A stretch of 64,000 nt of DNA from Candidatus Udaeobacter sp. (GTDB lineage Bacteria > Patescibacteriota > Patescibacteriia > Magasanikbacterales > GWA2-37-8): the NCBI GenBank assembly GCA_035473115.1, contig DATION010000003.1, positions 3,264 to 67,263 on the forward strand, in the 5' to 3' direction. The position numbers were made by a program, and so were the translations under genes. Shown here in pieces: positions 17,202 through 50,924 of the stretch. A model generated the notes under the pieces. It had not been told where the DNA came from. It saw only the letters and a program-made list of their open reading frames with translations, and searched no databases. Positions within the stretch are counted from its first letter, which is position 1, and every line of letters begins with the position of its first letter.

Positions 17202-17212
17202 AATTTGAAAAT

Positions 17213-17791: not shown

Positions 17792-17803
17792 TTTTATAAA
17801 TAT

Positions 17804-18214
17804 ATGGAGGCAGTAATTTTCAACTATCTAGCCGTTATTTCTGCGGCTGTGGCCAGTTTTATTCTCGGAGGCATCTATGTAGCTTTATTTAGCAAACAGT
17901 CAGCTAAGCTAAATGGCTTTACTGAAGCTGAAGCAAAAGAAAAACAAAAGGCAAATCCAAAAGGACTTGTGGGAATTTTTTTGGCTAATCTTGCCATGGC
18001 TTTTGGTGTTAGCTATCTTATTTTTGCGCTAGATGTTCATAGTATTGTTAGAGTGTTATCTCTTGAGTTTTGGTTGTTCGTCGGGTTTGTCGGTCCGATG
18101 AGCATTGGACCTGTTTTGTGGGAAGGAAAATCCATTAAGTTATGGATTTTTAATAATATAATCAATGTTATCGCTCTTTTTGCGATGATGTTAATTCTAA
18201 CTTTTTGGAGATAA
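17804..18214 (+). CDS. DUF1761-like small membrane protein, paralog A.
   Basis: Four transmembrane segments and the motif GPVLWEGKSIKLWIFNN, which is shared with the ORF at 41919. Confidence 0.55.
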   Translation: MEAVIFNYLAVISAAVASFILGGIYVALFSKQSAKLNGFTEAEAKEKQKANPKGLVGIFLANLAMAFGVSYLIFALDVHSIVRVLSLEFWLFVGFVGPMSIGPVLWEGKSIKLWIFNNIINVIALFAMMLILTFWR

Positions 18215-18245
18215 ATGATTTTTTAGTAAATTTATTTTAAGATAT

Positions 18246-18617
18246 ATGAAAAATATTATAACTTGGTTTGAAGTTCCTTCAGAAGATTTTGATCGGGCAG
18301 TAAATTTTTATAATACTATTCTGGGGATTGAAATCCAGAAAATGACAATTGAAAATCATACTATGGGCATGTTTCCTTCGGCTGAAGGGCAAGTAGCCGG
18401 AGCAATCGTAAATAGTATGGATTTTGCCAAACCAAGCGACCAGGGCGTTAATGTTTATTTTAACGCTGGTGATGATTTAGATGGAATTTTATCGCGCGTT
18501 GAATCAGCCGGCGGAAAAATTGTAGTTCCTAAAACAGATATTGGTGATTTTGGTTGTATGGCTTGGATTAAAGATAGCGAAGGCAATCGAGTTGGTTTAC
18601 AACAGCTTAAAAAATAG
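18246..18617 (+). CDS. VOC/glyoxalase-family protein.
   Basis: 123 aa with a glyoxalase/bleomycin-resistance fold pattern, including the segment GKIVVPKTDIGDFGCMAWIKDSEGNRVGL. Confidence 0.85.
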   Translation: MKNIITWFEVPSEDFDRAVNFYNTILGIEIQKMTIENHTMGMFPSAEGQVAGAIVNSMDFAKPSDQGVNVYFNAGDDLDGILSRVESAGGKIVVPKTDIGDFGCMAWIKDSEGNRVGLQQLKK

Positions 18618-18624
18618 ATTTCAA

Positions 18625-18659
18625 GTAACAAAAAATGAGCTAGGCGCTCATTTTTTGTT
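18625..18659. repeat. Palindromic terminator element, copy 1, with a 15 bp stem.
   Basis: taacaaaaaatgagc taggc gctcattttttgtta. It lies between the convergent VOC and RidA genes. Confidence 0.6.
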
Positions 18660-18701
18660 ACATTACATTTGAAACTGAGAATTGATTCAGTTCGCCTACG
18701 C

Positions 18702-19202
18702 TCAACGAGGGTCATCAGTCCCAATTTCTAAAACAAGCTCAATTTCAATCGACATGCCGAGGGGCAGGCTTGCTACACCTAGTACAGCGCGAGTTGGAAG
18801 CTTGTCAGTTCCAAATATTTTCTCCAACAATTCGGACGCCCCGTCAGCGACTTTGGGGTGTTCCTTGAAGTCACCTTCGGTGGCAATGTAGACACCAAGC
18901 TTGAGAATACGAGTTACGGAGTTGAGTGAGCCCAGATGTGCCTTCACTGTGGAGAGACCATTTAATGTGGCGGCTGCTGCCGCATTTCGGCCATCTTCAA
19001 CAGTTAACTCTCTGCCAATTCGTCCAATAAATTTTGGTTTGCCAGCCACTATCGGCAACATTCCGCTCAAAAAGAGTATGTTGCCGCTCTGATTCGCTTC
19101 GACGTAGGAACCAAGAGGAGTTGGCGGTGGAGGTAGTATAATTGCGAGCTCTTTCAGCTTCTGTTCTGCATTATTAGGGAGCATTGTATCAAGCTTTACC
19201 AT
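18702..19202 (-). CDS. RidA/YjgF-family (Rid) protein.
   Basis: 166 aa with the YjgF fold pattern RAVLGVASLPLGMSIEIE. Confidence 0.85.
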   Translation of the reverse strand: MVKLDTMLPNNAEQKLKELAIILPPPPTPLGSYVEANQSGNILFLSGMLPIVAGKPKFIGRIGRELTVEDGRNAAAAATLNGLSTVKAHLGSLNSVTRILKLGVYIATEGDFKEHPKVADGASELLEKIFGTDKLPTRAVLGVASLPLGMSIEIELVLEIGTDDPR

Positions 19203-19924
19203 TTTCCTAAATGTGCGCCGCCATTAACATGCAGCACTTCTCCAGTTATGTTTGGAGATTCAGTTAAAAAGAGTACGGCCTCGGCAATCTCCTTTACATC
19301 GGAAATACTGGCCATTGGCGACAGAGTCTTTAGGAAATCTTTTGGATTGTCCTTGTGTAATGGGGTATCGACAATGCCTGGAGCTACTGTGTTTACCCGG
19401 ATTCCATTAGGAGCGTATTCCATCGCTAGACTTTTTGAGATCGCATCAATTCCGCCTTTGGTGATCATTGGCACTGATGCTGTAAAGCCGGCAATAGGAT
19501 GATCAACCAGCGACGTTGTAATACTGACAACACTGCCGCCGGTTTTTTGTACCAACATTTGTCGGATCGCCAGCTGTGTCAGATGAATAAAGCCTTCCAG
19601 GTTTGTTGATGATAGTTTTCTGAAGTCTTCCATGGTGTAGTCGATGAATGGTTTAACAATGAAAATACCAGCATTGTTGACCACTGCATCTATGGTGCCG
19701 AAAGTTTTGATAGCTGCGTCCACCACTTTTTGTGCAGTTGTCGGGTCGCCGATATCGCCATCGACCAAAACAATGTTACTGGATGCGTGTACCTCTGTTG
19801 ACTGGCTTACGTTGCGCGAGGTAGCAACAACGTTATATCCTTTCTCTGAAAAAGTTTTTACAAGTCCAGCGCCAATTCCTTGTGAGGCGCCGGTAATTAT
19901 GATGGTTTTATTTTGCGTTTTCAT
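19196..19924 (-). CDS. Short-chain dehydrogenase/reductase.
   Basis: Cofactor motif TGASQGIG, NNAG, and a catalytic Tyr/Lys region. 242 aa. Confidence 0.9.
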   Translation of the reverse strand: MKTQNKTIIITGASQGIGAGLVKTFSEKGYNVVATSRNVSQSTEVHASSNIVLVDGDIGDPTTAQKVVDAAIKTFGTIDAVVNNAGIFIVKPFIDYTMEDFRKLSSTNLEGFIHLTQLAIRQMLVQKTGGSVVSITTSLVDHPIAGFTASVPMITKGGIDAISKSLAMEYAPNGIRVNTVAPGIVDTPLHKDNPKDFLKTLSPMASISDVKEIAEAVLFLTESPNITGEVLHVNGGAHLGKW

Positions 19925-19971
19925 TTTGTTTATTTATTAGTTTAATAATTTATTGGTTTTTACTATGGGTT

Positions 19972-20586
19972 TTACTGCAATGGCGATAACTCACCGGCAT
20001 AATAAATATCAGCTTGTTGTTCGGTCAAGTACAATCCTGCATTAGGAGGCGGCCAAACACCATCAGCAACTGCCTTGGCCCGCAGATGTGCGCGCTCATC
20101 AAGGCTTTGGTAAGGCCAGATTTGTATGAAGCAAGGTTCGGCCTCATCAATGTTGTAGAGTCCGGCAAGTAGTGGTGATATCTTGATTCTGTCGGGTATA
20201 GCTTTGCGCCACAACTCAATAGTAGGATCCATCCCGCCCGGTTTAATTTTATAAGTGCGTACTTCAAACACCGGTCCAACATTTCCAGTCTTGATTGGTC
20301 CAAGGAATGGTAATGACTGAAAGGTGTTGGTAGCAAATGCAGTCGTGAACTCCTTGCAACCAAACGGGTCGATACTGAGAGATAGGGTATTTCGGTCTGA
20401 AATAGCCTGTTCGTAGCTAATAGCACGATGGATTAACAATATCCGGTTTAAGGCTCCAATATCAGATAGGAAGTAGCCTACTAACTCGCCTGGTATATCA
20501 GCCAGATGATCTTTTATGCGTGTCATTGCTTGCGCGCCCGTACCAGGCTTAAGATCAATGGTAGTGATATTATAAGTGTAAGTCAT
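19972..20586 (-). CDS. NIPSNAP-like protein with two dimeric alpha-beta-barrel domains.
   Basis: 204 aa with two repeated halves, each carrying a W.....P motif. The assignment is tentative. Confidence 0.5.
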   Translation of the reverse strand: MTYTYNITTIDLKPGTGAQAMTRIKDHLADIPGELVGYFLSDIGALNRILLIHRAISYEQAISDRNTLSLSIDPFGCKEFTTAFATNTFQSLPFLGPIKTGNVGPVFEVRTYKIKPGGMDPTIELWRKAIPDRIKISPLLAGLYNIDEAEPCFIQIWPYQSLDERAHLRAKAVADGVWPPPNAGLYLTEQQADIYYAGELSPLQ

Positions 20587-20852
20587 GGTGGTTGTTTTTT
20601 AAGCGTGGTTTTGGAGCAATACACTCTGGCATATGTTGCTTACCTGTGCTATGTTTATTGGTATCAACTTGTATTCCAGGTCTGGTCCTTTGAGTACTAG
20701 GGGTCTTTAAGAATGTTTGACGTTTTGAATACGTAGAATTTAAGCATACATAAAGTAACTATTTTATTAAAAAAGCTATTACCATTACGACCAGGATGTC
20801 AGTATAGCAGTATTGCTTGTATTATGCAAGTATATTATACTGTGGATAACTT

Positions 20853-21284
20853 ATGAAAAGAAAAGCAGGAAAATCTAATTGCGCAATTAATTATTCTCTG
20901 GAGACATTTGGGGATATGTGGTCGTTGCTGATTATTCGCGATATTATCCTTTTCGGAAAACATACTTACGGAGAATTTCTAGATTCAGATGAGCGCATAG
21001 CGACCAATATTCTCGCAAGCAAACTTTCGTGCTTGGTGAGCGCGGAGATACTTCACAAGTCCTCTAATCCGGCTGACAAACGAAAAGATATATATACAAT
21101 TACAGAAAAGGGGTTGGCTTTGATCCCTATGTTTTTTGAGATGATGGAATGGGGTGTTAAGTATAATGATTTAAAGACGCCTAAGGAAGCGGTGGATTTT
21201 ATTAAAAAATTTAAAAAAAATAAAATTAAAGTAGCACAAGAGGTTATGGAAAAAGTCCGCGCTGGAGGATCTGTTTTTTCTTGA
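20853..21284 (+). CDS. HxlR-family winged-helix transcriptional regulator.
   Basis: CAINYSLETFGDMWSLLIIRDI matches the HxlR signature. It is transcribed divergently from the NIPSNAP-SDR-RidA operon. Confidence 0.85.
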   Translation: MKRKAGKSNCAINYSLETFGDMWSLLIIRDIILFGKHTYGEFLDSDERIATNILASKLSCLVSAEILHKSSNPADKRKDIYTITEKGLALIPMFFEMMEWGVKYNDLKTPKEAVDFIKKFKKNKIKVAQEVMEKVRAGGSVFS

Positions 21285-21348
21285 GTCTAGCTGAAAGGTT
21301 GCTATTACTCGGTCTGTAATCTCCTAAAAATTATCAAAGATTAAATTA

Positions 21349-21383
21349 ATACAAAAAATGAGCTAAGCGCTCATTTTTGTTAA
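21349..21383. repeat. Palindromic terminator element, copy 2; nearly identical to copy 1.
   Basis: acaaaaaatgagc taagc gctcatttttgtta. It lies between the HxlR gene on the plus strand and the MFS gene on the minus strand. Confidence 0.6.
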
Positions 21384-21384
21384 T

Positions 21385-22635
21385 TCACATTTTGTGTCTT
21401 GGTCGATGTGGTTTATTTGGTATTGATAGTTTAGATACTGCTTTATGAGGATGTTGCTTGATCATTATTTGGTAAATTATCCAGGTGATAAATATTGGCA
21501 GCGCGCCAATAGTGATTGTCCAGGATGGTCCGACAAAACCATATAATATTCCAGACAGCGCCGGCCCTAATGTCCAACCAATATCTTCAGATAGATTTAT
21601 GACTCCCGCAACGGCCCCGTCATTGGCATGTTCGCGGTCAAGTTTTTGCAGCCAAGTCCAAAGTGAAATACCGGATATTTCGTCTCCGGAAGTAGATAAA
21701 AAACCAAAGAGTAAGAATAGCCAGCCAAAATTAAACCCAAGCAGCATGCCAGAGATGGCGAAAAGAAGCAAACCAACAAAAATTAAAGTTCGTTTATTGA
21801 CGCTATCGGCTAATTTGCCAAATAAAAATCCAAGCACAACTACTGCAAAATCAAACATGCCTAGCCCGATGCTAAGAACTCCGGAGTGGGCTTGATGGGA
21901 AATTACTAGCGGTACGACAAACCAGATAGCTGCATAAAACATTGATCCGGCAAAATTGTGCAAGAGCAAGATCATGCTGGCTGGATTTAATTTTTTGATC
22001 ATTTTTATTGTTGTGCCTAAAAACTGGCGATTTATATAATGATGCTGGGTTTCAAGTTTTATTTCTTTGTGTACTGATTGGCGATCTTTTGGGCTAAAGA
22101 AAAGCGCCAGAAGAGCGATAAAAAATAAGACAAATAAACCATAACCAACGGATCTGGTCATTAAGATGAGAGCGAGAGGCATGGTGGTGCTGGCCAAAAG
22201 ACTGCCAGTTGAGCAAAATATATCTCGTAAAGAAATAAATTTACCGGCATTTTCTTTGGGCGCGTGGGATAAGATATAAGCATTGATGCCTGGGCCGAAA
22301 AATAGCCAGCCAAATACACTAAAAAACAGGCTGAGCAAAAAAGTGGCGCGGGTAAGCGGAAAGGTTAGGCAGAAAGCTGCGGCCAGAAAAGCAACGGTCG
22401 TAACTTTTAAAAATGTTTTATAGCCATAACGATCAAGCAGATTTCCGGCCGGAACATCTAGTATTAGCTGTATCAAACCGCTTCCGCCCATTAGCAGGCC
22501 AACTACCCATAAAGGAAAAAGTTTTTCGCCAAAAGGAGAAATAAGAGTGTAATAAAGGCCGCCGCTGAATTTAAATAGAGTCAAAAAAATCCAAAAAGGA
22601 GTAAATTTTAAAAATAGTTTTATTTTCGATTTCAT
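21385..22635 (-). CDS. MFS transporter.
   Basis: 416 aa with about 12 transmembrane segments and an MFS-like loop motif between TM2 and TM3. Confidence 0.8.
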   Translation of the reverse strand: MKSKIKLFLKFTPFWIFLTLFKFSGGLYYTLISPFGEKLFPLWVVGLLMGGSGLIQLILDVPAGNLLDRYGYKTFLKVTTVAFLAAAFCLTFPLTRATFLLSLFFSVFGWLFFGPGINAYILSHAPKENAGKFISLRDIFCSTGSLLASTTMPLALILMTRSVGYGLFVLFFIALLALFFSPKDRQSVHKEIKLETQHHYINRQFLGTTIKMIKKLNPASMILLLHNFAGSMFYAAIWFVVPLVISHQAHSGVLSIGLGMFDFAVVVLGFLFGKLADSVNKRTLIFVGLLLFAISGMLLGFNFGWLFLLFGFLSTSGDEISGISLWTWLQKLDREHANDGAVAGVINLSEDIGWTLGPALSGILYGFVGPSWTITIGALPIFITWIIYQIMIKQHPHKAVSKLSIPNKPHRPRHKM

Positions 22636-22758
22636 AAATCAGTCTGTGCCATATTATTATCATATTTTATTGTAAATTAGATAAAAAAGCAACCTTATAC
22701 TCTAGTTGACGGTTAAGCTGTAAAAGCCTATTATACAGGGGAATAAAATGGTTTTTTT

Positions 22759-23784
22759 ATGTCTAAAAAAATAAAAAAATTAACTCCTTTTCTTGGACAG
22801 ATTCTGCAAAAAATCGCTCCGCAAATTGGTGCAAAAGTTATTTTGGAACCAAAATGGAAATTTGTCGGACAGATTATTTTCAAAAATGGCCGTAAGCAGT
22901 ATTTTCGCAATTTAGGTTTTGGTTTTAATTCTTTAGCTGCTTCAGAAATTGCTCAGGATAAAGATTATTCTAATTTTTTTATGGAGAGCATGGGGTATTC
23001 GGTTGTGCCAAGCAGTCAAGCTTTTTTTAGAAATGATTGGGCAAAAACAATCGGTCAGCCTGCACGCAATATAGACGCGGCTTATCGTTACGCTCAAAAA
23101 ATCGGCTTTCCAGTTTTTGTTAAACCAAATAGCGGCAGCCAAGGGTTGGATGTTTCTTTAGTATATAATAAACAAGAATTTCAACGAGCTATTTTGGCAG
23201 TATTTAAGCATGATCGGATTGCTTTGGTTCAGCACCAGGTAAAAGGAAAAGAATATCGGCTGGTTGTTTTAGGAGAAAAAGTAATTTGGGCTTATCAGTG
23301 TCAGCCATTTAATGTTGTGGGTGACGGTAAGCTTAATGTTTTTCAGCTTCTAAACGAGAAAAGAAAACAGTTCATGCTTTCTAATCGTAAGATAAAAATT
23401 AGTTTTAGTGATCCTAGAATTAAAGAAAAACTCGGTCATTATAAAATGAATTTTAAATCCGTGCCGGCCAAAGGCCAAAAAATCTATTTGTTAGATAATG
23501 CCAATCTTTCCACTGGCGGCGATTCACAAGATGTGACCAAAGCTATTCATCCGGGGTTTAAAAAATTAGCTGTTAAACTTGCTGCGGATATGGGGTTACA
23601 ATTTTGCGGGATAGATTTGGTTGTCCAAGGCAGTATTTCAGAAAAACCAGGAAAATATTGGGTTTTGGAAGTTAATCATTCTCCAGGATTAGATCATTAT
23701 CCGCAAACTGGCTTGGCACAACCAAAGGCGGCTGAGAGTTTGTATTTAGGAATTATTAAATATATGGAAAAAAATAATAATTAA
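22759..23784 (+). CDS. ATP-grasp ligase resembling the RimK/cyanophycin-synthetase family.
   Basis: Motifs GFPVFVKPNSGSQG, NLSTGG and a C-terminal WVLEVNHSPGL. Confidence 0.7.
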   Translation: MSKKIKKLTPFLGQILQKIAPQIGAKVILEPKWKFVGQIIFKNGRKQYFRNLGFGFNSLAASEIAQDKDYSNFFMESMGYSVVPSSQAFFRNDWAKTIGQPARNIDAAYRYAQKIGFPVFVKPNSGSQGLDVSLVYNKQEFQRAILAVFKHDRIALVQHQVKGKEYRLVVLGEKVIWAYQCQPFNVVGDGKLNVFQLLNEKRKQFMLSNRKIKISFSDPRIKEKLGHYKMNFKSVPAKGQKIYLLDNANLSTGGDSQDVTKAIHPGFKKLAVKLAADMGLQFCGIDLVVQGSISEKPGKYWVLEVNHSPGLDHYPQTGLAQPKAAESLYLGIIKYMEKNNN

Positions 23785-23786
23785 AT

Positions 23787-24119
23787 ATGGCTACCAAACA
23801 ATCAACTGTTGATTTTATTCTTGATCAATTAATTTCCATAGATAATATTAACACTCGAAAAATGTTTGGTGAGTATGCTTTGTATTGCGATGGCAAGGTG
23901 GTAGGTTTGATTTGTGATGATATTTTATTTATCAAAATTACTGAGTTGGGAAAGAATTTTGTTGGGGAGTATTATAAAGAAGGTCTGCCATATCCTGGAG
24001 CTAAGCCGTGGATGAAGATAAACGAAGAAAGAATTGATGACAATGATTGGTTGGCAGAATTAATTCATATCACTGCAGATAATTTACCGGCGCCAAAACC
24101 AAAGAAGTCTAAAAAGTAA
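23787..24119 (+). CDS. TfoX N-terminal domain protein.
   Basis: MFGEYALYCDGKVVGLICDDILFIK matches the TfoX_N pattern. Confidence 0.6.
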   Translation: MATKQSTVDFILDQLISIDNINTRKMFGEYALYCDGKVVGLICDDILFIKITELGKNFVGEYYKEGLPYPGAKPWMKINEERIDDNDWLAELIHITADNLPAPKPKKSKK

Positions 24120-24133
24120 TCGGATAAAATTAT

Positions 24134-24580
24134 ATGTCTGTTATAAATTCAGAGATTAAGATATTTGCTGCCACCAAAGCTTTTGTTATTCATAATGGGA
24201 AAGTTTTATTGTTGAGGGAATCTGGTAAGTATGTAGATGGAGCTAATGTGGGGCGGCATGATGTAGTGGGCGGACGAGTTGAGCCAGAACAAAGATTTGA
24301 TGCCAGTTTACTTAGAGAAATTAAAGAAGAGACTGGTTTGGAGATAAAAATAGGCCGGCCGTTTTTCGTAAATGAGTGGCGGCCAGTGGTAAGAGGTGAA
24401 CAGTGGCAGATCGTTGGAACATTTTTTGAATGTTTTGCCGATAGTGAAAATGTAGTTTTAAGCAGTGATCATGATGAATATGTTTGGATTGATCCAAAAG
24501 ATTATAAGCAATTTAATATTATTGAAAATCTGCAAGCGGCTTTTGAAAGTTATTTAGATTTAAAAAAATTATATGTCTGA
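24134..24580 (+). CDS. NUDIX hydrolase.
   Basis: Nudix box GGRVEPEQRFDASLLREIKEETGLEI. Confidence 0.85.
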   Translation: MSVINSEIKIFAATKAFVIHNGKVLLLRESGKYVDGANVGRHDVVGGRVEPEQRFDASLLREIKEETGLEIKIGRPFFVNEWRPVVRGEQWQIVGTFFECFADSENVVLSSDHDEYVWIDPKDYKQFNIIENLQAAFESYLDLKKLYV

Positions 24581-25337
24581 AATGCCAAGAACAGAAACTA
24601 GTATGGTAGCTTGGGGAAGAGGATTAGAAAAAGCTGGTGTAGCTGATGTTGGTATGGTTGAAGCCCTAAAAGCTGATAGATTTAAGGGTTGGAAACGAGT
24701 TGAGCAGTTGGGTTTACCCAGGTATGAATTGAAAACTTCATCATTGGATAGCTTTTTAGAAAATTTTGCAGAGATTATTCCAAAAGATGAAAAACGAGAT
24801 TGGTTTGTATTGTTGGAGCCAAGAAAAGGTGGAATGAGATATAGGAAAACTTTGCTTAAGAGTTCGGAGATAGTTGATTTTGTAGAAACAACTGTTAGTG
24901 ATAATAATTTGGACGCAAGTAATTATGATATAGCAATTTCTGAGTCATTGCCCCAAGAGTATGGCGGTAATATTATTATAGACAAAAACGGAAAAATTTT
25001 GGCAGAAATCAGTAAGGGTGGGCAGGGTGTAGTGGCTGAAGGTACGCATGACCAAGAAAAACATGGCAATTTATTTACCGTTAGAAGAGATCAATTTCTT
25101 GGCTCCTTTAAATATTCATGGGAAGATGGAGAAGAAACTAATGGAGTGGCTTTGCGAGCAGCAGTAAATAAAACCATTATGTCTATTCCTCATGAGGGTG
25201 AAGATAGGGAAATTAAGTTCACTCCCGGATATTATGAATTTCATCTAGTAAGAAAAGATGGTGAAGAAGGTTTGCAGCCAGTTTTTGTTGATTGCCGTCA
25301 GGATGAGGTTTTAACGAAGTTGCCATCAGATTTTTAG
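24573..25337 (+). CDS. Hypothetical 254 aa protein.
   Basis: Overlaps the NUDIX stop by 8 nt, consistent with operon membership. No recognisable motif. Confidence 0.5.
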   Translation: MSEMPRTETSMVAWGRGLEKAGVADVGMVEALKADRFKGWKRVEQLGLPRYELKTSSLDSFLENFAEIIPKDEKRDWFVLLEPRKGGMRYRKTLLKSSEIVDFVETTVSDNNLDASNYDIAISESLPQEYGGNIIIDKNGKILAEISKGGQGVVAEGTHDQEKHGNLFTVRRDQFLGSFKYSWEDGEETNGVALRAAVNKTIMSIPHEGEDREIKFTPGYYEFHLVRKDGEEGLQPVFVDCRQDEVLTKLPSDF

Positions 25338-25487
25338 TTTTTAAAATTTGATACATAAATTATACCTTGACAGGAGGTATTTTTTGTGATAACTTAATCT
25401 GTCTTCTCGATCCGCATGGTCGGTCGGGAGTGATACAGAAAATTGGGGAAAGACCATGAAATCAAAATTCAACATGAGGAGTCAGAG

Positions 25488-26087
25488 ATGACCACGCAAC
25501 AGACCATTCTCTTCCTGGCGGCCAACCCGAATGGAGTTAATCAGCGAGCGTTCGATCGAGAGATGCGCTCCATGAAGGATGAGCTCAAGCGCAGCGGCTC
25601 TCGGGATTTCAAAATCGAGATCGGTTGGGCGGCTGGGCCTTTGGATCTGCTCAGGGACCTACGAGAGCACAGGCCAACTGTCGTGCATTTCAACGGTCAC
25701 GGTGGCGATGGTGGCTTGTATCTTCAGGACAATGATGGTGACGCCAAGTTCGTTTCTACCCACGCCATCCAGCAGACGTTTGGCGCAGCGGGAGATTCAG
25801 TGAAGGTGGTAGTGCTCAATTCCTGCTATAGTGACGAACAGGCCGAGGCCTTGATTGCACACGTCGATTGCGTTGTGGGTATGAGTGGAGCTATCAGCGA
25901 TGCCGTGACCCGACAGTTCGCGATCGGCTTCTACGGAGGCTTGGGAGAGCGTGAGTCCGTTGCGGCGGCGTATGCTCAGGGTAAGGCGTCAGTCAGTTTG
26001 GCTGGCTTGCACTGGAACAGTCCTCCGCAGCTCAAGGTTCGGCACGGAGTCGATGCTAATCGACTGATCTTAGCCAGGCGCAGTTGA
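25488..26087 (+). CDS. Minimal caspase-like peptidase domain protein of the CHAT type, clan CD.
   Basis: His motif VVHFNGHGG and Cys motif VKVVVLNSCYS at the canonical spacing. N-terminal ILFLAANP pattern. The Shine-Dalgarno GAGGAG lies 6 nt before the ATG. The coding sequence has about 58% GC against about 37% in the surrounding DNA. Confidence 0.6.
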   Translation: MTTQQTILFLAANPNGVNQRAFDREMRSMKDELKRSGSRDFKIEIGWAAGPLDLLRDLREHRPTVVHFNGHGGDGGLYLQDNDGDAKFVSTHAIQQTFGAAGDSVKVVVLNSCYSDEQAEALIAHVDCVVGMSGAISDAVTRQFAIGFYGGLGERESVAAAYAQGKASVSLAGLHWNSPPQLKVRHGVDANRLILARRS

Positions 26088-26181
26088 CCTTAAGCACTTA
26101 GTAATCTGAATGCCGAGGGGAAGTGCTCCTAAATTCCACCGGGTGGCACCGGTTTAACGACAGGGCAAGGAAGAAATCATC

Positions 26182-27075
26182 ATGGCGAAACCGATCAATA
26201 GTCTGAGTGATGCGATTAGGGCGTTTAACAAGGATCCGAAGAACAAGGAGGCCAGTTCTTACATCAGAAATGCCTTTGATGGGCGTTCTGGTATTTTCGT
26301 TAAGGATGATGGCAAGATTGACCTCGACGCAACTCTTGAGGCCTATGATACGCTGGAGGAGGCCAAAATTCAGAAGTTGCCAGATGCCGTATCATTTGAT
26401 GAACTTCTGGCTCAGTCCAGGCCGGAGCGTAGAGCAGATCCAGTCGTCCGTCGTATGCTTTTCAACGGCAAGACCGTGGATGCTGATCCGGAGATCGACT
26501 GGAGTTCTGTGTCAGATGATGGGCGCAAGGCGGCTGCATTTGCTGTCGAGATGGGGATGATCCAGGAGACCGATGATGCATCGCGTCTGGCTGCGTATCA
26601 TTTTGGGCAGGATAATCCTCCACCTCCATATTCAACTGCGATTGCTGGTTACAGGAAGCTGATGGACAAGACTCGTAAGAGTGCTGAGGATTTGGTTCGG
26701 ATCGCTCAGATCGAGAGCCGTCTCGTGTTTGATCCAACCAACAAGGTTTCTACGGATCCTGATCTACAGAAGCTGCTGGTTTTGGGTCTGCCCAAGGCAC
26801 CGATTATCAGTAGTGATGATCGTAGACTTCAGCCGAGTGGTGGAAACCAGAGGAAAGAGTTTCTACAAGTTCATGAGTGGGCTCCTTTGCTCTCTCGTGA
26901 GCAGTGTATTGCAGTCGCTACGTATCTGGTTGGTCCTGGTTGTAGGCTTCCAGATGCTGTTTATCACGCAGTGCGGTCAGCATACGCAGGCGTATTGTGG
27001 AGTATCGTGGGGGATGCTGGTAATGGACCCAAACCCACGGAGCGTTTTCAGAACCTGCTTAGCGTTCTGAAGTAG
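26182..27075 (+). CDS. Hypothetical 297 aa protein, encoded on the GC-rich segment together with the CHAT-like peptidase.
   Basis: Shine-Dalgarno AAGGAAG. High GC. No recognisable domain and no N-terminal Cys. It carries a PPPPY motif. Confidence 0.5.
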   Translation: MAKPINSLSDAIRAFNKDPKNKEASSYIRNAFDGRSGIFVKDDGKIDLDATLEAYDTLEEAKIQKLPDAVSFDELLAQSRPERRADPVVRRMLFNGKTVDADPEIDWSSVSDDGRKAAAFAVEMGMIQETDDASRLAAYHFGQDNPPPPYSTAIAGYRKLMDKTRKSAEDLVRIAQIESRLVFDPTNKVSTDPDLQKLLVLGLPKAPIISSDDRRLQPSGGNQRKEFLQVHEWAPLLSREQCIAVATYLVGPGCRLPDAVYHAVRSAYAGVLWSIVGDAGNGPKPTERFQNLLSVLK

Positions 27076-27198
27076 AGCGCAAGAAGGTAGAGAGTGGGCA
27101 ATAGATACCTTGGTTCACAACCATGGCCGCCTGATCTCACGGTGATCGCAATAAAATTGTTGTTACCGTGAGGGTGGTCATCAAAAATTTAATAATAA

Positions 27199-27228
27199 AA
27201 AGTTTCCTTAATTTAAGGAAACTTTTTA
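27199..27228. terminator. Bidirectional intrinsic terminator.
   Basis: aaaagtttcctta attt aaggaaacttttt. Confidence 0.6.
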
Positions 27229-27247
27229 TTATACAGAAAATTTATAT

Positions 27248-28969
27248 TTAATATTTATCGACAATTATATCTTGTTTATTATTAGTATTTTCTATCCGAA
27301 GATTGCGAAAATTTCCTTCATCACTTCGCCATTCATTGGAAAATCCCCATCCATTCCATTTCCAAACCGCCACATAGTTTCCGGAACAGCTTGATTTTTG
27401 AGAATAGTCTCCTTCCAGTACAACTAGATCTTGTTTATTATCACCATCTATATCCGCAATTTTAAATTCACAATTTGGCGCAGCCAGATTTGAAGATTGC
27501 CAAATAGGTTTCATTATTCCGCTCATAATATCAAAAACAAAAAAATGATTTTTTATACTCGGATCATTTTCTTTGATCCAAAAAGGTTTTGAATTACCAA
27601 AATTACCGGATTTCCAAACTGCCAGATTTATATCGATTATACCGTCATTGTTGGAATCTGCAACAGAAAAATCATCTACCCACCAACCATTGGAGGATTC
27701 CCAAATAGTTTTTCCTTCTTGGGAAATTTTTAGTTTTCCATCCTGCAAAGTAAGTTCTTCCAGTTTACCATCATTGTCTATATCACCTTTTTCTAGTTTT
27801 GGCAGATTATCTTTGTTTGAGGAAGTACTTGTTGTTAATTTTTTAACAGTTTTATCAAACTGGTCCGCTTTTTTATTCCACTCAAAAATTAAACTGTCTG
27901 TGAAGGGAAAATTTATTTTTTCTATAATTTTGGCCGCCTCGTTGTTTTCTAAAAGTTTTGGCTGAGAAAGGTCTTCTATCGAAATTGGAAAAGGCAAGAT
28001 TAGACTGACTCCGGTTTTATCAAAAAATATTTTGACAGCCAAACCCTGCTTGGTTTCGGCAGGTTGAGTTTGATCAAAAACAAAATTTCCTAAACTATAT
28101 AAAATATATTTTCCCTTATATTTTTCTATAGATTGAATAACGTGGGGATGATGGCCAATAATTAATTCTGCTCCGGCATCAATAGCTTTATGGGCAAAAT
28201 TGGTTTGTGACTTATTTGGTTTAGTGGTGTATTCTTTGCCGGCATGCATAGAAATAATTACAAAATCAGCTTTTTGTTTGGCTTGTTTTATGGCTTCCAC
28301 CATTTTTTCGCTGCGCATAAAAGCTGTTCCGGCTCTATTTTTAGCTGCTTCGTAGTATGGAGGCACAACATCTGTGTCGTTATAAGCAAGAAAAGCAAAT
28401 GTGATTCCTTGGCGGGTTATATAAACAGGTTGGTTAGCTTCAATTGAATTTTGTCCGGCGCCTATATGTAGAATTCCTGCGCTATCTAAATAGCTTATAG
28501 TGTCAATAATCCCTTGTTCGCCAAAATTTGGCGTGTGGTTATTGGCTAGAGATACAATATCAAAACCAGAATTTTTGAGAGCGTTTTCTACTCCCGGATT
28601 GGCACGAAGCGTCATTTCGTATGGCATGATGATTGGTCCGGATGTAATAGGATTTTCCAAGTTACCAAAAGTTATATCCGCTTCCTTGAGGAAATTACTA
28701 ATTTTCAAAAATGGATAATTAATATCATTACGATACTTTATTTTACTAGCCACAGTTCTGGAAAGCATAATATCACCCACCGCAATTAAAGAAACTTCCC
28801 CAGTTGTTTGCGGAAGCTTCTTTTTTTCTGAGATAAAATCTGAAAAATTTTCAACTGTTTGTAGTTGATTCTTTACAGATTTTTTCTTAGTTACGGGAAA
28901 GTAATTAAGAGTAATGGCCGCCGCCAAAGAAAGAAAAAATAATGTTGGCCAAATAATTCTCTTGTGCAT
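27248..28969 (-). CDS. CapA/PgsA-family metallophosphatase with a C-terminal FG-GAP/VCBS-like repeat region.
   Basis: CapA motifs GDIMLSR, GNLENP and GHHPHV. The C-terminus carries DIDNDGKLEEL, DSNNDGIIDI and DIDGDNKQDLVV repeats. Confidence 0.8.
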   Translation of the reverse strand: MHKRIIWPTLFFLSLAAAITLNYFPVTKKKSVKNQLQTVENFSDFISEKKKLPQTTGEVSLIAVGDIMLSRTVASKIKYRNDINYPFLKISNFLKEADITFGNLENPITSGPIIMPYEMTLRANPGVENALKNSGFDIVSLANNHTPNFGEQGIIDTISYLDSAGILHIGAGQNSIEANQPVYITRQGITFAFLAYNDTDVVPPYYEAAKNRAGTAFMRSEKMVEAIKQAKQKADFVIISMHAGKEYTTKPNKSQTNFAHKAIDAGAELIIGHHPHVIQSIEKYKGKYILYSLGNFVFDQTQPAETKQGLAVKIFFDKTGVSLILPFPISIEDLSQPKLLENNEAAKIIEKINFPFTDSLIFEWNKKADQFDKTVKKLTTSTSSNKDNLPKLEKGDIDNDGKLEELTLQDGKLKISQEGKTIWESSNGWWVDDFSVADSNNDGIIDINLAVWKSGNFGNSKPFWIKENDPSIKNHFFVFDIMSGIMKPIWQSSNLAAPNCEFKIADIDGDNKQDLVVLEGDYSQKSSCSGNYVAVWKWNGWGFSNEWRSDEGNFRNLRIENTNNKQDIIVDKY

Positions 28970-31186
28970 TTATTTTGTTATAAATGTATTCGTCCAGTCT
29001 GGCATTTCCGGAGTTGGGCGAGAGTTAAGAATTTCTCGCCATTTTTTGTCGGTTAATCTGTCTGACATTGGCCAGGTAAATTCATAATATGAGTAAACTC
29101 CACCTTTTGCAATTCGTAATTTTCCATCAATTGGAACCACTACATAAATTTCAGCGATATTGCCAGTAGCTTCTTCCAAAACTTTTCCATTAGGATCAGT
29201 CGCCACATCAGCTATTAAAGCGGCCGGATTTTTATCTAAATAATCCCTTTGGCTGGTTGATTCTTTAAAAGCCGGTTCGTCTTTGTTGACTTCAAGCCAA
29301 AAATGTTCCAACTGACCGCCGTAGGAACGAATAAGTTCGTATTCCTGGTCGGTTAGTTTTTTATTATCTAATTCTTTTTCAGAGATTGTTTTAAGAGACA
29401 TGGCCAGCTCTTCCATTTTGTTGAGACTTTCTTTCATTGTAGGAGTGAGCAAGTTTCTTGTTTGTAAAATTTGATTGGTCATTTTAAGCAGCGAAGCAAG
29501 GCGGGCATAAACGTTCGGGTTTGGTTCCACATATCCGCGATCATCTTTTTGTTCCGGACCGCCGCCGCCTAATTCAGCATATACCTGTTTTGCATACAGG
29601 ATCGTATCATGTTTTAATTCTGTCCAGCTTCCCAAAAAAGTGTTAATTTCTTTTCTGGCCCAAGCGGTATTTTGCATGAAAGTCGGGTAGCCAGATGTTT
29701 TTATAGTTATTAATGGCTGCAATGAATAAAGCCAGCCCCAATAAAGATTTTGTGTCCAAGTTGTTGTTGGCAGGTTGGAAAAGTAGGCTTGTATTTTAGA
29801 CATGTTTTCCGGATAGCAAGCATACTCGGTTTCTCCTTGATCTTGTAAAATGTTAAAAGCTTCTTTTGATCCCATGGCTGCTGGGATATCTAGGCTTTTT
29901 GGCAGCATTCTTCCTTTGTCAAATGGAGCTTTTGAGCAAGAATCGCCTTTAGGGCCAACTTCTCTGGTAACTAATCTTTGGAAAATAGCAGCGTCAATGG
30001 TAAATCTTTGGCCCATAAACCGGAAGCCTTTAATTTCTTTTTCTCGGTCTGGTTGGATTGATGCGTTAAAAATTGGCATGGAGTTTATTTGCGGCGGCTC
30101 TAAGGTTTTTGTTTCGGCAACAAACAAATTAAATTTATTTTTATCATTTGATACTAATTGAACGGTGGCATTTTGGCCATAAATTTTTTCAACCAGATCC
30201 TTAAATTGGTAGTAAGTTATATCATCGCTTTTACCAACAAAAAAGTTGATTGGTTCATAAAGTTTATTCCAGCTAATTTGATCATTGCTTTTATTTAAAG
30301 CTAGAGTAATTAAAATTCCAGATTTAATTTCGTCTTCATTTTTTAATCGAAAAGTTAATCGGCCGTACCACATCATTGATTTGAAATAAGCCTTTAATTG
30401 TTCGGTTTTATCATAATGTCCTCTGGCTACATATTGTGAATAATCTTCTTTGAATGCATCGGTCCCCAACATTCCTTGAGGAGTATCCAGAACTACACCT
30501 CGTGTTCCGCCAATATTCATAACCGGAGATTCTTTAATTCCTGCATGAGCTTCGATCAGACTCAGCTCTTGCGCAACTTCGTCTTTGACAGGTGAAGGAA
30601 TTTTAATTGATGAATCAAGAAGTTTACTGCCTACAGCAAAAAATCCCAGATTTCTTTTGGCGGCATTTTCCCATTGCGTTCCTTTTAAGTCATTGTATTG
30701 TTTGGCAGCTTCGGTCAACATATTGGCATTAAGCTTTTTTAATTCGGCAGTTAGCTTTTCTTCTTCCAGTTTTTTTAATAAATAATCAAACATCAAATGG
30801 TAATTGTGCAGCATTGAATCGGTTGTGATAAAACTTGGTATGTAAGAATAACGATTTGATTCGTATAGAGGGTAAAATTCTTTCTGGTATCCAGGATTAA
30901 CCACAAAATTGTTTTTTACAAGCAAATTTTTGGATTCGTCAGATAAATTATTAAAGTCGGCTGCGTTTACTATATTGGTCAGATCTGGGTGCGCAGAAGA
31001 TGTTGGTATTTTAGAGTTAATTTCTTCCACAGCCCCTTGATTATTAGCAGTAGTTGAAGCGGGAAAATTAGTTGCAGGATAAGTATCGCCCGCAATTTTT
31101 AGAAGTTTGTTTTGGGAAAAAATCAGATAACTTGCAAAGCCAATAATTAAAATAGGAAACAGTACTAGAAAAAAATATTTTTTCAT
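28970..31186 (-). CDS. Large exported protein of unknown function, possibly DUF3160-like.
   Basis: 738 aa with a signal anchor. It is co-directional with and immediately adjacent to the capA-like gene. Confidence 0.45.
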   Translation of the reverse strand: MKKYFFLVLFPILIIGFASYLIFSQNKLLKIAGDTYPATNFPASTTANNQGAVEEINSKIPTSSAHPDLTNIVNAADFNNLSDESKNLLVKNNFVVNPGYQKEFYPLYESNRYSYIPSFITTDSMLHNYHLMFDYLLKKLEEEKLTAELKKLNANMLTEAAKQYNDLKGTQWENAAKRNLGFFAVGSKLLDSSIKIPSPVKDEVAQELSLIEAHAGIKESPVMNIGGTRGVVLDTPQGMLGTDAFKEDYSQYVARGHYDKTEQLKAYFKSMMWYGRLTFRLKNEDEIKSGILITLALNKSNDQISWNKLYEPINFFVGKSDDITYYQFKDLVEKIYGQNATVQLVSNDKNKFNLFVAETKTLEPPQINSMPIFNASIQPDREKEIKGFRFMGQRFTIDAAIFQRLVTREVGPKGDSCSKAPFDKGRMLPKSLDIPAAMGSKEAFNILQDQGETEYACYPENMSKIQAYFSNLPTTTWTQNLYWGWLYSLQPLITIKTSGYPTFMQNTAWARKEINTFLGSWTELKHDTILYAKQVYAELGGGGPEQKDDRGYVEPNPNVYARLASLLKMTNQILQTRNLLTPTMKESLNKMEELAMSLKTISEKELDNKKLTDQEYELIRSYGGQLEHFWLEVNKDEPAFKESTSQRDYLDKNPAALIADVATDPNGKVLEEATGNIAEIYVVVPIDGKLRIAKGGVYSYYEFTWPMSDRLTDKKWREILNSRPTPEMPDWTNTFITK

Positions 31187-31199
31187 ATTTTAGGTTAAT

Positions 31200-31997
31200 T
31201 TATTTTATTAAAAAATAAGATAGAATTAAAATTCCTAGTATTATTCGGTAATAACCAAACGGAATGAAATTTTTGCTTTGAATATATTTTATAAAAATAG
31301 CAATTACCGCCCAGGCAACCAAAAATGATGTTAAAAATCCTGTCAGCAAAACTAAGCCCTGGGTAATATTTATATCTAACCCGCTTTTCAGTAACGCATA
31401 TCCGGAAGCGGCAAACATTGTTGGTATAGCCAGAAAAAAAGAAAATTCAGTTGCCACGACTCGGGAAGCGCCCAGCAGCATGGCGCCAATAATAGTGGCT
31501 CCGGAGCGGGACATGCCTGGGATCATGGCTAAACATTGAATTAAGCCAATAGTAAAAGCCGTTTTATAACTTAATTGGCTCAAAGAGTTTATTTTAAAAT
31601 TCAGTTTTCTTCTTTCTATAATAACAAAAGCGATGCCGCCAGCTATTAAAGTTATGGCTACTACAATAGGATTAAATAATTTGGCTTCGATTATTTTACC
31701 CAGAAAAAAACCAATTACAATCGCCGGTAAAACCCCAACGATCGCTCTTGTCCAAATATCAAATACTTCTTTTTTATTTTCGTCTTTGCCAAACGGCCAG
31801 ATGCGATGCCAAAAATAAACTACCACAGCCAAAATAGATCCAAGTTGAATTACGACATCAAACAGTTCGGTAAAATGCTTGTCAAAGGCCAGCCACTGGT
31901 TTACTATTATCAAATGACCTGTAGAAGAAATAGGTAGGAATTCGGTAATCCCTTCGACTGCTCCCAAAACGATAGCTTTGATAAATTCAAATAGCAT
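31200..31997 (-). CDS. uppP: Undecaprenyl-diphosphatase.
   Basis: AVEGITEFLPISSTGHL and the BacA/UppP pattern PGMSRSGATI. Confidence 0.9.
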   Translation of the reverse strand: MLFEFIKAIVLGAVEGITEFLPISSTGHLIIVNQWLAFDKHFTELFDVVIQLGSILAVVVYFWHRIWPFGKDENKKEVFDIWTRAIVGVLPAIVIGFFLGKIIEAKLFNPIVVAITLIAGGIAFVIIERRKLNFKINSLSQLSYKTAFTIGLIQCLAMIPGMSRSGATIIGAMLLGASRVVATEFSFFLAIPTMFAASGYALLKSGLDINITQGLVLLTGFLTSFLVAWAVIAIFIKYIQSKNFIPFGYYRIILGILILSYFLIK

Positions 31998-32055
31998 AAT
32001 AAACTTAGTAAATTACAGGCTTATTATAACCTAAGCTAATACTTTAATCCATTGT

Positions 32056-32676
32056 ATGTCCTCAAAAAAAGCAATCATTCATTTAAAGTCGGTTGATCCG
32101 GTTTTGGGAAAGTTATTTGATAAGTTGCCGTTAAGAAAATTACATCCCCACACCAATTATTTTCAGTCTTTAACCGAAGCGATTATTGGTCAGCAGCTTT
32201 CTGTTAAGGCGGCGGATACCATTATTGGCCGGTTTCGTAGTTTATTTAAGAGCGAAGAATTTCCTTCCCCTAAACAGATTTTGGCTAAAAGTGATAGGCA
32301 TTTGCGTTCAGCTGGTATGTCCTGGTCCAAAGCCAGTTATGTTAAAAATTTAGCCAAAGCAACGCAAGAGAGGGTAGTTAATTTTAAAGATTTGGAAAAA
32401 TTAAAAGATGAAGAAATTATTGAAATGCTGGTTAAGGTAAAAGGTGTTGGCCGCTGGACAGCGGAAATGTTTTTGATTTTTTCTTTGGGTCGGCCGGATA
32501 TATTTTCTCCAGGTGATTTGGGCTTGCGCAATGCAATTAAAAAATTATATGGCTTACGACAAGATCCTTCGCCAAAGAAATTACATAAAATATCTTCACG
32601 CTGGCAGCCGTACCGAACTTACGCTTCATTGTACTTATGGGCGAGTCTGGATAATACTAATAGACAAAAGAGTTAG
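32056..32676 (+). CDS. HhH-GPD DNA glycosylase (AlkA-like 3-methyladenine glycosylase II).
   Basis: HhH motif VKGVGRWTAEMFLIF plus a catalytic Asp within PGDLGLRNA. Confidence 0.85.
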   Translation: MSSKKAIIHLKSVDPVLGKLFDKLPLRKLHPHTNYFQSLTEAIIGQQLSVKAADTIIGRFRSLFKSEEFPSPKQILAKSDRHLRSAGMSWSKASYVKNLAKATQERVVNFKDLEKLKDEEIIEMLVKVKGVGRWTAEMFLIFSLGRPDIFSPGDLGLRNAIKKLYGLRQDPSPKKLHKISSRWQPYRTYASLYLWASLDNTNRQKS

Positions 32677-32718
32677 TTTTCGTTAGAATTAGCTTGTTAA
32701 TCCATTAATTAAATTTTT

Positions 32719-33315
32719 ATGAATAAAAAATATTTGGCCGAGTTTATCGGAACTTTTGCTCTGTCTCTTGTTGTCTTAATGGCTGTGGTTTCTACAAAAA
32801 GTTTACCGTTGGCTGTGCCACTGATTGCTGGACTAACTCTAAGTTTATTTGTTTATTCTATTGGCTCAATTTCCGGCTGTCATATTAATCCGTCAGTTAC
32901 TTTGGCGCAATTGTCAGTTAAGAAAATTTCTTTAAAAGAGGCGGTTATTTATATAGTTATTCAATTTTTGGGAGCTTTACTGGCTATGGCTGTAGCCAAG
33001 ATTTTTGTGATTGTAAATCCGATGACTGGAACGATGTTTAGCGGCAAAGTTTTTTTGGCTGAAATGTTGGGAGCATTTTTCTTTAATTTTGGCATTGCTT
33101 CGGTGGTTTATGGCAAAGCCAAAGAACAGATGTCTGGACTTGTGGTCGGCGGTTCGTTGGTTTTAGGAGTTTTAATTGCATCACTAGCTGGCGCAGCCGG
33201 AATACTTAATCCAGCAGTAGCCTTGGTTTTAAATTCGTTTAACTTTGTTTATCTTTTTGCGCCAATTGTTGGCGCAGTGCTTGGATTTCAGGTTTATAGG
33301 TTTATTGCCGAATAG
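32719..33315 (+). CDS. MIP/aquaporin-family channel; the protein is short for the family.
   Basis: First motif GCHINPSVT, an NPS variant; second motif GILNPAVA. Six transmembrane segments. Confidence 0.7.
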   Translation: MNKKYLAEFIGTFALSLVVLMAVVSTKSLPLAVPLIAGLTLSLFVYSIGSISGCHINPSVTLAQLSVKKISLKEAVIYIVIQFLGALLAMAVAKIFVIVNPMTGTMFSGKVFLAEMLGAFFFNFGIASVVYGKAKEQMSGLVVGGSLVLGVLIASLAGAAGILNPAVALVLNSFNFVYLFAPIVGAVLGFQVYRFIAE

Positions 33316-33328
33316 ATTGATTATATAT

Positions 33329-33414
33329 GGAGAGGTGTCTGAGTGGTCGAAAGTGCCGCTCTCGAAAAGCGGTAGGGTTTATAGCCCTCGTGGGTTCGAC
33401 TCCCACCCTCTCCG
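33329..33414 (+). tRNA. tRNA-Ser with anticodon CGA; type II, with no encoded CCA tail.
   Basis: Acceptor stem GGAGAGG / CCTCTCC. Anticodon arm ccgct CTCGAAA agcgg. Long variable arm. T-arm gtggg ttcgact cccac. Confidence 0.85.
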
Positions 33415-33487
33415 CAGCGTAATAAAATAAAGCGAGGAAGAAGAATGACCAAACTGCTTGAATAGACTATTTACAATGGTTAAATTT

Positions 33488-34447
33488 ATGAAAAAACTCC
33501 TATTATTTTTCCCAATCATTTTTTTAAGCGGTTGTTCTATAGTTAATCAGTCGCCAGCTTCAATTTCTGTAATATCTGCTGTGTCCAGTAGTAGCCCGAA
33601 AATTTATCAGAATACAACTTTAGGTTTTAAGCTTACTTTCCCTAATCAATCTTGGCATACAGAACAGGGAAACGATCCGCATTTTTATGAGAGTGAAACC
33701 TGTTTGCAAACGGAGCAGTCTGACTGTGCCGCTTTGGAAGTACAAAATCATGATAGTGAATTTGGGCAAGGGGCGGAAGCAGCTTTTAAAGTTTTGCAGA
33801 TCGATGGCAAGGAGCCTGTTAAGTTAAATTCTTTAATACCGACAGCTGTTGTGATAAAATCAATCGCTCCTGAAGGGGCCAAAGCTTGGGGTTGGGAGTA
33901 TGATATATTTTTTTCTGCAGCCAAAAAAAGATTTTTGATATTTACCAATGATGCTGCTTTGGAGCAAAGTGTGCTACCGACTTTCTCAATAACTTCCACC
34001 CAGTCAGCAGGAGTTATTGTTCAAGATTCAATTCGCGCTTACGAAAAAGGTATTACCAGTCAAACATATATAGATGCTAAGGAAGATTTGGAATATAATG
34101 ATACCGTGAAAAATTTTGGATTAGATATTATGTATGCGGATGTAACTCAAGATGGCAAAGAAGAAGCTTTAGTTTCTATTCCTTCAGGCGGAACAAACGG
34201 AATTATTGCTGTTTTGGTCTATGGTTTAGATGGTAATAAAGTAAAACTTTTGCAGCGAATTGATGGCTACAAAATGGTAGTTAAGCCTGCTGGCGGAAAA
34301 TTACGAATTTATGAGTCTGACAGAGATCGGCAAGATTCCTCTAATATTTTTATGCTGGATTATAGCTGGAATGGAAAATCTTTTGATTTAAAATCAAGAA
34401 CTCAAGTGCCTAACCCGGTTGACAATAAAAGTCTGTTAATGAATTAA
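33488..34447 (+). CDS. Hypothetical lipoprotein.
   Basis: Lipobox FLSGC; the start was set at the internal Met MKKLLLFF. No recognisable domain. Confidence 0.5.
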   Translation: MKKLLLFFPIIFLSGCSIVNQSPASISVISAVSSSSPKIYQNTTLGFKLTFPNQSWHTEQGNDPHFYESETCLQTEQSDCAALEVQNHDSEFGQGAEAAFKVLQIDGKEPVKLNSLIPTAVVIKSIAPEGAKAWGWEYDIFFSAAKKRFLIFTNDAALEQSVLPTFSITSTQSAGVIVQDSIRAYEKGITSQTYIDAKEDLEYNDTVKNFGLDIMYADVTQDGKEEALVSIPSGGTNGIIAVLVYGLDGNKVKLLQRIDGYKMVVKPAGGKLRIYESDRDRQDSSNIFMLDYSWNGKSFDLKSRTQVPNPVDNKSLLMN

Positions 34448-34524
34448 TAATTTTATCTCCACAAAAGCTTTTTAATCTGTTATACTTAAATTATATAGCT
34501 TTTATTAACTTAATTCATTTAACT

Positions 34525-34962: not shown

Positions 34963-34974
34963 TAAATTTAACGT

Positions 34975-50779: not shown

Positions 50780-50785
50780 TATTTG

Positions 50786-50859: not shown

Positions 50860-50924
50860 TATTTAAGTTGTAATTTTAATTTGTCGTGGGACGCTTAGCG
50901 TCCCAAGCACAACGCTTAGCGTTG

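Follow-up and report, generated by a model that had tools for sequence, protein, structure and literature searches.

In the STAND/NLR-like conflict systems of Kofleriaceae and cyanobacteria (Avs-like, nSTAND1, NB-ARC), a CHAT protease is the effector module and is found N-terminal to the sensor or encoded just upstream of it. In SAVED-CHAT, which is part of a type III-B CRISPR/CBASS-like cascade of Haliangium ochraceum (structure 8tl0), the protease is activated by oligomerisation on a filament of its own sensor domain (bioRxiv 10.1101/2023.06.23.546230). Type IV Thoeris is a two-gene system in which the TIR-family lineage is joined to a caspase-like protease as executioner, and these caspase-like executioners cut many proteins after Arg. 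Caspase-like proteases are also found beside non-enzymatic partners in the protease-gasdermin and EACC1-caspase pairs, EACC1 being by description a single-transmembrane protein. The EAD1 and EAD7 domains are Death-like adaptors that recruit effectors to nucleoside triphosphate (NTP)-dependent conflict systems (Kaur et al. 2020, PMC7159879). Here we describe a GC-rich (guanine plus cytosine) island of ~1.8 kb on contig DATION010000003.1, within an analysed stretch of 64,000 nucleotides hereafter called the window. The island contains two genes, open reading frame (ORF) 1 encoding a standalone CHAT protease and ORF2 encoding a protein of 297 residues hereafter called the partner (Table 1). The two genes probably form a small, one-off immune pair with a mode of action that we infer, in which a known effector protease stands beside a member of an uncatalogued and rare domain family of the same functional network.

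The protease and its partner

The product of ORF1 is a genuine CHAT/clan CD peptidase by hidden Markov model (HMM), fold and catalytic dyad, with peptidase activity predicted. The sequence contains the motifs VVHFNGHGG and VVVLNSCYS and was matched by Pfam PF12770 with an E value of 2.1e-8 and a score of 34.4 bits against a cut-off of 24. Cys113 was invariant and His71 nearly invariant in an alignment of 38 homologous sequences, and the ATG at 25488 agrees with the N-terminus of the family. The AlphaFold2 model (pLDDT 85.8, pTM 0.85) retrieved the activated SAVED-CHAT filament 8tl0 as the best Foldseek match (E 5e-14, TMq 0.80, 26% identity), followed by C11 peptidases, CED-3, separase, caspases, legumain and MALT1, all with a probability of 1.00. 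A profile of the ORF1 family matched 8tl0_A with an E value of 5e-18, the GHG and NAC motifs being aligned, and His71 and Cys113 of ORF1 correspond to H375 and C422 of 8tl0. These results confirm the CHAT-type peptidase proposed in a first-pass annotation of the window, which was also correct in the ORF coordinates, both motifs, the spacer between the genes, the Shine-Dalgarno sequence before each gene and the out-of-frame ORFs that crowd the island.

The homologues of ORF1 (n = 577) include many standalone proteins of 200-230 residues, with a best identity of 67%. Nearly all of the genome matches were from Kofleriaceae and 'Deltaproteobacteria' metagenome-assembled genomes (MAGs), with a few from cyanobacteria and Bacteroidota (Flammeovirgaceae, Saprospiraceae). 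Fused relatives include CHAT-nSTAND1-Cache (L030) and CHAT joined to WD40 or TPR arrays (L022, L054). In split relatives, the gene downstream encodes an NB-ARC-TPR protein (L071), an AAA_16-WD40 protein (L017) or a P-loop ATPase with TPR (L004, matching AAA_22/AAA_16 and weakly NB-ARC). Since the subfamily elsewhere heads or precedes large sensor proteins, ORF1 genuinely belongs to a known subfamily of effectors, here without its usual sensor.

A single Kofleriaceae MAG, SMAG_U13378 (contigs DATMCI0100..., L011-L059), contains 20 loci of the CHAT subfamily, several of them on one 232-kb contig. In many of them the CHAT gene is joined to a STAND, WD40 or TPR gene or precedes one, and together the 20 loci constitute a large lineage-specific expansion. 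Most CHAT homologues contain a variable Arg/Asp/Gly-rich insertion of 10-40 residues directly after GHGG (alignment A3, columns ~99-141), which could be a regulatory or autoprocessing loop; it is absent from ORF1 and its closest relatives.

The partner matched no entry of Pfam, NCBIfam or PADLOC at E <= 1, in agreement with the first-pass annotation, which had recognised no domain in it, and the only match to PHROGs was insignificant (E 0.38). A word-indexed protein search returned the partner itself and nothing else, and relatives emerged only from an exhaustive HMMER scan against 1.84 billion representatives, which placed them in 42 other clusters with phmmer E values of 1e-20 to 1e-4. All but two of these relatives match only residues ~1-185, hereafter the N-domain; the two, P0122 and P0123, share the C-terminal region as well (BLASTP E 2e-13 and 2e-10). 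The N-domain gave a confidently folded model with no solved structural relative, and the model of the C-terminal region was of low confidence (pLDDT 43-56). Relatives of the N-domain keep the motif EADPxTGxPLRKGKT..VDWS, and the conserved positions include P87, L93, G96, W107 and R115 of the partner (alignments A1 and A2). The partner belongs to the family as defined by alignment A2, being homologous over residues 1-185 with the region of these five positions included. None of the conserved positions is catalytic-looking, and the alignments held no invariant residue of a catalytic type. A partner of gasdermin-like, pore-forming or toxin type was not borne out, since neither the domain libraries nor the structure search revealed a pore-forming, toxin, gasdermin-like or enzymatic fold or motif.

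The family of the N-domain is uncatalogued and rare. At least 13 of its 46 members contain a TIR domain by Pfam and 5 of the 46 contain EAD1 or EAD7, some having both EAD and TIR, and these modules are placed after a Pro/Ala-rich disordered linker C-terminal to the N-domain. The partner itself gave no match to TIR or EAD at E <= 1. Since relatives carry the N-domain in fusion with TIR and EAD modules, sequence homology supports the assignment of the partner to the conflict-system domain network. The affiliation is thereby supported for both genes independently, consistent with the conflict or defence role first proposed for the locus.

Protein P0125 (1104 residues with twelve tandem repeats of ~65 residues, E 2e-13) was rejected as a relative of the partner, the match being repeat-boosted and the hhalign probability 1.1%. 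Three scans of viral contigs for a phage origin of the N-domain family were all negative. The N-domain homologue of L005 (1-8259) has ribonucleotide reductase, exonuclease, HD and RlaP-like genes as neighbours and that of L007 (1-7835) has a phage Mu Gp36-like gene nearby, hints of mobile or phage-like contexts. The gene for P0138 is cut off by the end of its contig.

The pair is outside the SAVED-CHAT/CBASS, CHAT-STAND, protease-gasdermin, EACC1-caspase, type IV Thoeris and EAD-coupled systems, since for each of them a defining feature was tested and found to be absent from the pair. Among solved structures SAVED-CHAT is the nearest to ORF1, with the dyad aligned; however, ORF1 is the protease domain alone, the PADLOC match to SAVED_CHAT being confined to the CHAT part of the profile (positions 340-449 of 498). 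The scanned flanking genes also included no cyclic-oligonucleotide synthase (CD-NTase or Cas10), PCaspase or sigma/anti-sigma genes. The CHAT-STAND systems contain the same CHAT subfamily at 50-67% identity, whereas a P-loop NTPase and arrays of WD40, TPR or Cache type are all missing from the window, and the unrelated protein downstream of the protease gave no P-loop or STAND match at E <= 1. The EAD1, EAD7 and TIR modules of the partner's relatives, in a pattern of constant and variable parts, resemble the EAD-coupled and TIR effectors of NTP-dependent conflict systems, but the partner encoded in the window is without EAD and TIR by Pfam. The two-gene organisation with a caspase-like protease is shared with type IV Thoeris, from which the locus differs in that the partner is without TIR, the CHAT protease has no counterpart of the ligand-binding domain at the C-terminus of the Thoeris caspase and the protease family is another one. 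A caspase-like protease beside a non-enzymatic partner is likewise the arrangement of the protease-gasdermin and EACC1-caspase pairs. In contrast to the former, the partner gave no gasdermin-like library match and no significant structural match; in contrast to the latter, the score against caspase_w_EACC1 (NF047832) was 17.1 bits versus a cut-off of 140 and the gene order is reversed, EACC1 being 5' of the caspase gene in that system.

Coupling of the two genes and mode of action

The model that we prefer on analysis of these data, with a probability of about 0.4, is that of a sensor or scaffold partner with a proximity-activated CHAT effector. The partner would replace the STAND sensor, its N-domain sensing an invader-derived cue and self-associating, and its C-terminal region would concentrate the CHAT protease. 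The protease would then be turned on by induced proximity, as are other CHAT and caspase enzymes, and would cleave cellular or invader proteins with the result that infection is halted, according to abortive-infection logic. Sensing, contact between the partner and CHAT, activation and substrates are all steps that we infer. The partner is proposed as the sensor because the slot fused to or downstream of this CHAT subfamily is held by sensors in the relatives, and as sensor or scaffold because the N-domain is a constant module followed, after a linker, by variable TIR or EAD outputs. Activation by proximity is common to TIR, Death-like and caspase modules.

The weak point of this model is the pairing, a single instance on horizontally acquired DNA. 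The coupling of CHAT and partner rests on their presence in one island, on the same strand and with a spacing of 94 nt, and several results weigh against it. The N-domain was absent within ~6 kb in 78 of 78 loci of CHAT homologues (L001-L004, L011-L084). Conversely, no CHAT was found by HMM in the partner-family loci L005-L010 or by Pfam among the genes flanking the homologue at L160, the called genes of L162 gave no CHAT match in the Pfam scan that was the only one made there, and no CHAT is encoded upstream of the full-length homologues P0122 and P0123; the contexts available for the partner family are small in number, and most of them come from short contigs. In addition, GC at third codon positions (GC3) is unequal between ORF1 (63%) and ORF2 (49%), which leaves room for separate gene histories. 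The first-pass annotation had proposed a two-gene module that would fall if the genes never occurred together elsewhere, and so far no such co-occurrence has been found in the 78 CHAT loci or in L005-L010 and L160.

The same results bear on a different explanation, which we consider unlikely: that the horizontal acquisition is real but the island is a stranded piece of a larger GC-rich conflict locus, the STAND sensor or other parts having been lost, with the function of the two genes uncoupled or gone. This would account for a pairing not seen in the CHAT and partner-family loci examined, for a CHAT protease whose relatives normally depend on STAND partners that are absent here and for the unequal GC3. 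The rarity of the partner family and the absence of a mobility gene, none being present among the inspected ORFs of the island, are also consistent with an orphaned passenger. However, both ORFs are full length for their families, with the dyad, the conserved motifs and the Shine-Dalgarno sequences intact. The GC3 of the genes is well under the ~70% GC of the homologue loci, which may mean residence and amelioration without decay, and the island is neatly positioned between a host operon and a host terminator.

Less probable again is the protease-substrate relationship put forward in the first-pass annotation, in which CHAT would cleave the partner, for example within the disordered residues 186-235, and free an active fragment, in the manner of the protease-gasdermin, Craspase-Csx30 and SAVED-CHAT-PCaspase systems. 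The adjacency of the genes on one island is in keeping with this proposal, and specific CHAT substrates encoded next door have a precedent (10.1101/2023.06.23.546230). Judging from the low-confidence model, the linker and C-terminal region of the partner may be accessible to proteases and, more speculatively, the conserved basic loop PLRKGKT may suit caspase-like enzymes specific for Arg or Lys. Nevertheless, neither a pore-forming nor a toxin or enzymatic fold or motif was seen in the partner, the N-domain is without invariant catalytic-type residues and the relatives bear TIR or EAD outputs of their own with no protease as neighbour. Moreover, there is no upstream sensor to activate a protease of 199 residues without a regulatory domain.

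If the two proteins cooperate as in the sensor or scaffold model, a bare CHAT would be drivable by a sensor other than a STAND NTPase, SAVED or TPR, and the N-domain would add to the immune parts list a new constant domain for TIR, Death-like and caspase modules, with a confident fold and no solved relative. A broader proposal, improbable as a whole, is that the N-domain represents a new NTPase-independent sensor or scaffold family that would work with TIR as a fusion, with EAD as an adaptor and with CHAT in trans. In that case the two genes would make up a new defence system, acquired horizontally from a Myxococcota-like donor rich in GC by a small genome of low GC content, possibly of the Candidate Phyla Radiation (CPR)/Patescibacteria. 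The practical value is modest, the family being rare, the pairing seen once and the mechanism a proposal at every step.

Origin of the island

The GC content of the whole window is 39.1%, that of the island 52.4% and that of the remainder 38.7%. Relative to 587 windows of equal size the GC content of the island has a z of 5.0, and its tetranucleotide distance is the greatest of the window. The GC shift noted in the first-pass annotation is therefore real, and the values given there (55-60% versus 37%) were slightly overstated. The CHAT gene has a GC content of 56.7% and the partner gene 50.8%, and GC3 of nine host genes including rpoB is 26-34% versus the higher values of ORF1 and ORF2. Homologues of both ORFs are found in genomes of 61-70% GC. 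The two-gene island is flanked by a pair of host transcription units that converge on it, in a chromosome of low GC content. Composition, GC3, the GC content of the genomes with homologues, the intact ORFs with Shine-Dalgarno sequences, the reproduced junctions and another small insert of high GC content that adjoins a tRNA cluster elsewhere in the window show the two-gene island to be, as far as sequence can tell, horizontally acquired from a GC-rich origin. This conclusion agrees with the foreign origin first suggested for the segment. The locus is thus a record of the entry of small immune-type genes of high GC content into a genome that is low in GC and seemingly streamlined.

The contig to which the window belongs is 84,445 bp long and is part of a third-party MAG that bears the label Candidatus Udaeobacter sp. 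(proteins HSR89108-HSR89111 and HSR89142). Its genes are chromosomal, including rpoB, ftsK, PBP1A and a P-type ATPase, and the GC content outside the island stands against the 54% reported for the genome of Ca. U. copiosus. Because of this difference the Udaeobacter label is doubtful and the contig is probably mis-binned. A CPR-like genome, as put forward in the first-pass annotation, is a plausible candidate host. The Logan assembly of SRR9656165 contains a contig of 20.7 kb (SRR9656165_387086) from which 18,163 nt were retrieved that are 100% identical to positions 17175-35337 of the window, the island and both junctions included. The third-party and Logan assemblies are probably from the same reads, and the identity thus rules out a misjoin specific to one assembler and is no substitute for read mapping. 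An assembly artefact, in which the assembler would have joined a GC-rich segment from a different organism of the sample into a contig of low GC, would find some support in the near coincidence of the island with the GC content of Ca. U. copiosus, whose label the bin bears, and in the probable derivation of both assemblies from the same run, but is highly improbable given that an internal insert requires two false joins, that the second assembler reproduced both junctions, that the insert lies exactly in an intergenic gap with the host terminator preserved and a 12-nt direct repeat flanking the region, and that the searches for homologues found CHAT relatives in Kofleriaceae and Deltaproteobacteria and none in Verrucomicrobia. 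The island is thus better described as an insertion than as the chimera against which the first-pass annotation had cautioned.

Edges of the island and neighbouring genes

Table 1. Positions of the features of the island and its edges, in window coordinates.
Feature	Position	Strand	Remark
Sigma-70-like promoter match TTGCCA-16-TAAAAT, upstream of island	25320..25347	+	consensus match only
8-bp direct repeat ATACCTTG, left copy	25362..25369	+	chance level
GC-rich island, foreign by composition	25400..27182	.	ends approximate, placed by composition change
12-nt exact direct repeat ATACAGAAAATT, left copy	25433..25444	+	
Shine-Dalgarno-like GAGGAG, 6 nt before CHAT ATG	25476..25481	+	read from sequence
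ORF1, standalone CHAT (clan CD, caspase-like) protease gene, 199 aa, His71 and Cys113	25488..26087	+	
Shine-Dalgarno-like AAGGAAG, 8 nt before partner ATG	26167..26173	+	read from sequence
ORF2, partner gene, 297 aa, HSR89110.1 / VLK22_01750	26182..27075	+	annotated hypothetical
Partner N-terminal domain, residues 1-185	26182..26736	+	uncatalogued constant module
Partner C-terminal region, residues 186-297	26737..27072	+	common only to P0122 and P0123
8-bp direct repeat ATACCTTG, right copy	27105..27112	+	chance level
Long GC-rich hairpin, island 3' edge	27123..27181	+	RNA fold and inverted repeat
Perfect 20-bp AT-rich hairpin	27192..27232	.	z -6.98
12-nt exact direct repeat ATACAGAAAATT, right copy	27231..27242	+	

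Two direct repeats are found at the edges of the island. The 8-bp repeat ATACCTTG is present where the first-pass annotation had placed it, but its suggested role as a target-site duplication was rejected on chance-level statistics, a shared word of at least 8 nt occurring between two 200-nt boundary windows in 64% of shuffles. The 12-nt repeat ATACAGAAAATT was matched in 0.4% of shuffles (P ~0.004) and in 4 of the 288 pairs of control windows taken from real sequence. Since neither repeat pair cleanly brackets the change in composition, the 12-mer is treated as a lead towards a possible target-site duplication.

The 3' edge of the island has the hairpin and following terminator that had been predicted from the sequence. 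Folding of 27076-27190 (115 nt) gave a minimum free energy of -40.1 kcal/mol with a z of -4.15, and none of 200 shuffles was equally stable. An integron attC site or a known RNA at this hairpin was rejected, since Rfam gave no match and inspection by eye revealed no core-site motifs. The AT-rich hairpin that follows looks from its sequence like a host-type bidirectional terminator shared with the convergent CapA/PGA_cap gene. Upstream of the island, the promoter match is one of 3 sigma-70-like consensus sites found versus 3.2 expected.

The host genes upstream (22759-25337, + strand) are tightly packed and encode an ATP-grasp protein (cyanophycin-synthetase-like), TfoX_N, NUDIX and a protein of 254 residues (VLK22_01740), for which a domain-library scan gave no family match; the reading frames of the last two overlap by 8 nt. 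Downstream on the - strand (27248-31186) are DUF3160 (738 residues) and then CapA/PGA_cap with FG-GAP repeats (573 residues). The CapA query retrieved 74 metagenome loci, of which 71 had a CapA/PGA_cap match and 51 had DUF3160 upstream (L086-L156). Identities of the DUF3160-CapA pair were 41-78%, the CapA relatives were at most ~57% identical over the full-length protein, and the synteny stops at the 3' end of CapA, which is the position of the island. Because of this limited identity and the end of synteny, none of the 74 loci gave an informative empty site. The relatives of the DUF3160-CapA pair are from sludge, bioreactor and groundwater metagenomes of ~40% GC.

The other GC-rich patch of the window (49793-50656, + strand), with 49-60% GC in 200-nt windows, adjoins tRNA-Pro/Phe/Ala at 50785-51125. 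Its product of 287 residues has a lipoprotein-like signal (LGALSSCAV) and a Laminin_G_3 match (E 2.8e-13), as in a LamG-type lipoprotein. By its sequence this patch looks like another small foreign insert, which fits a genome repeatedly acquiring GC-rich DNA.

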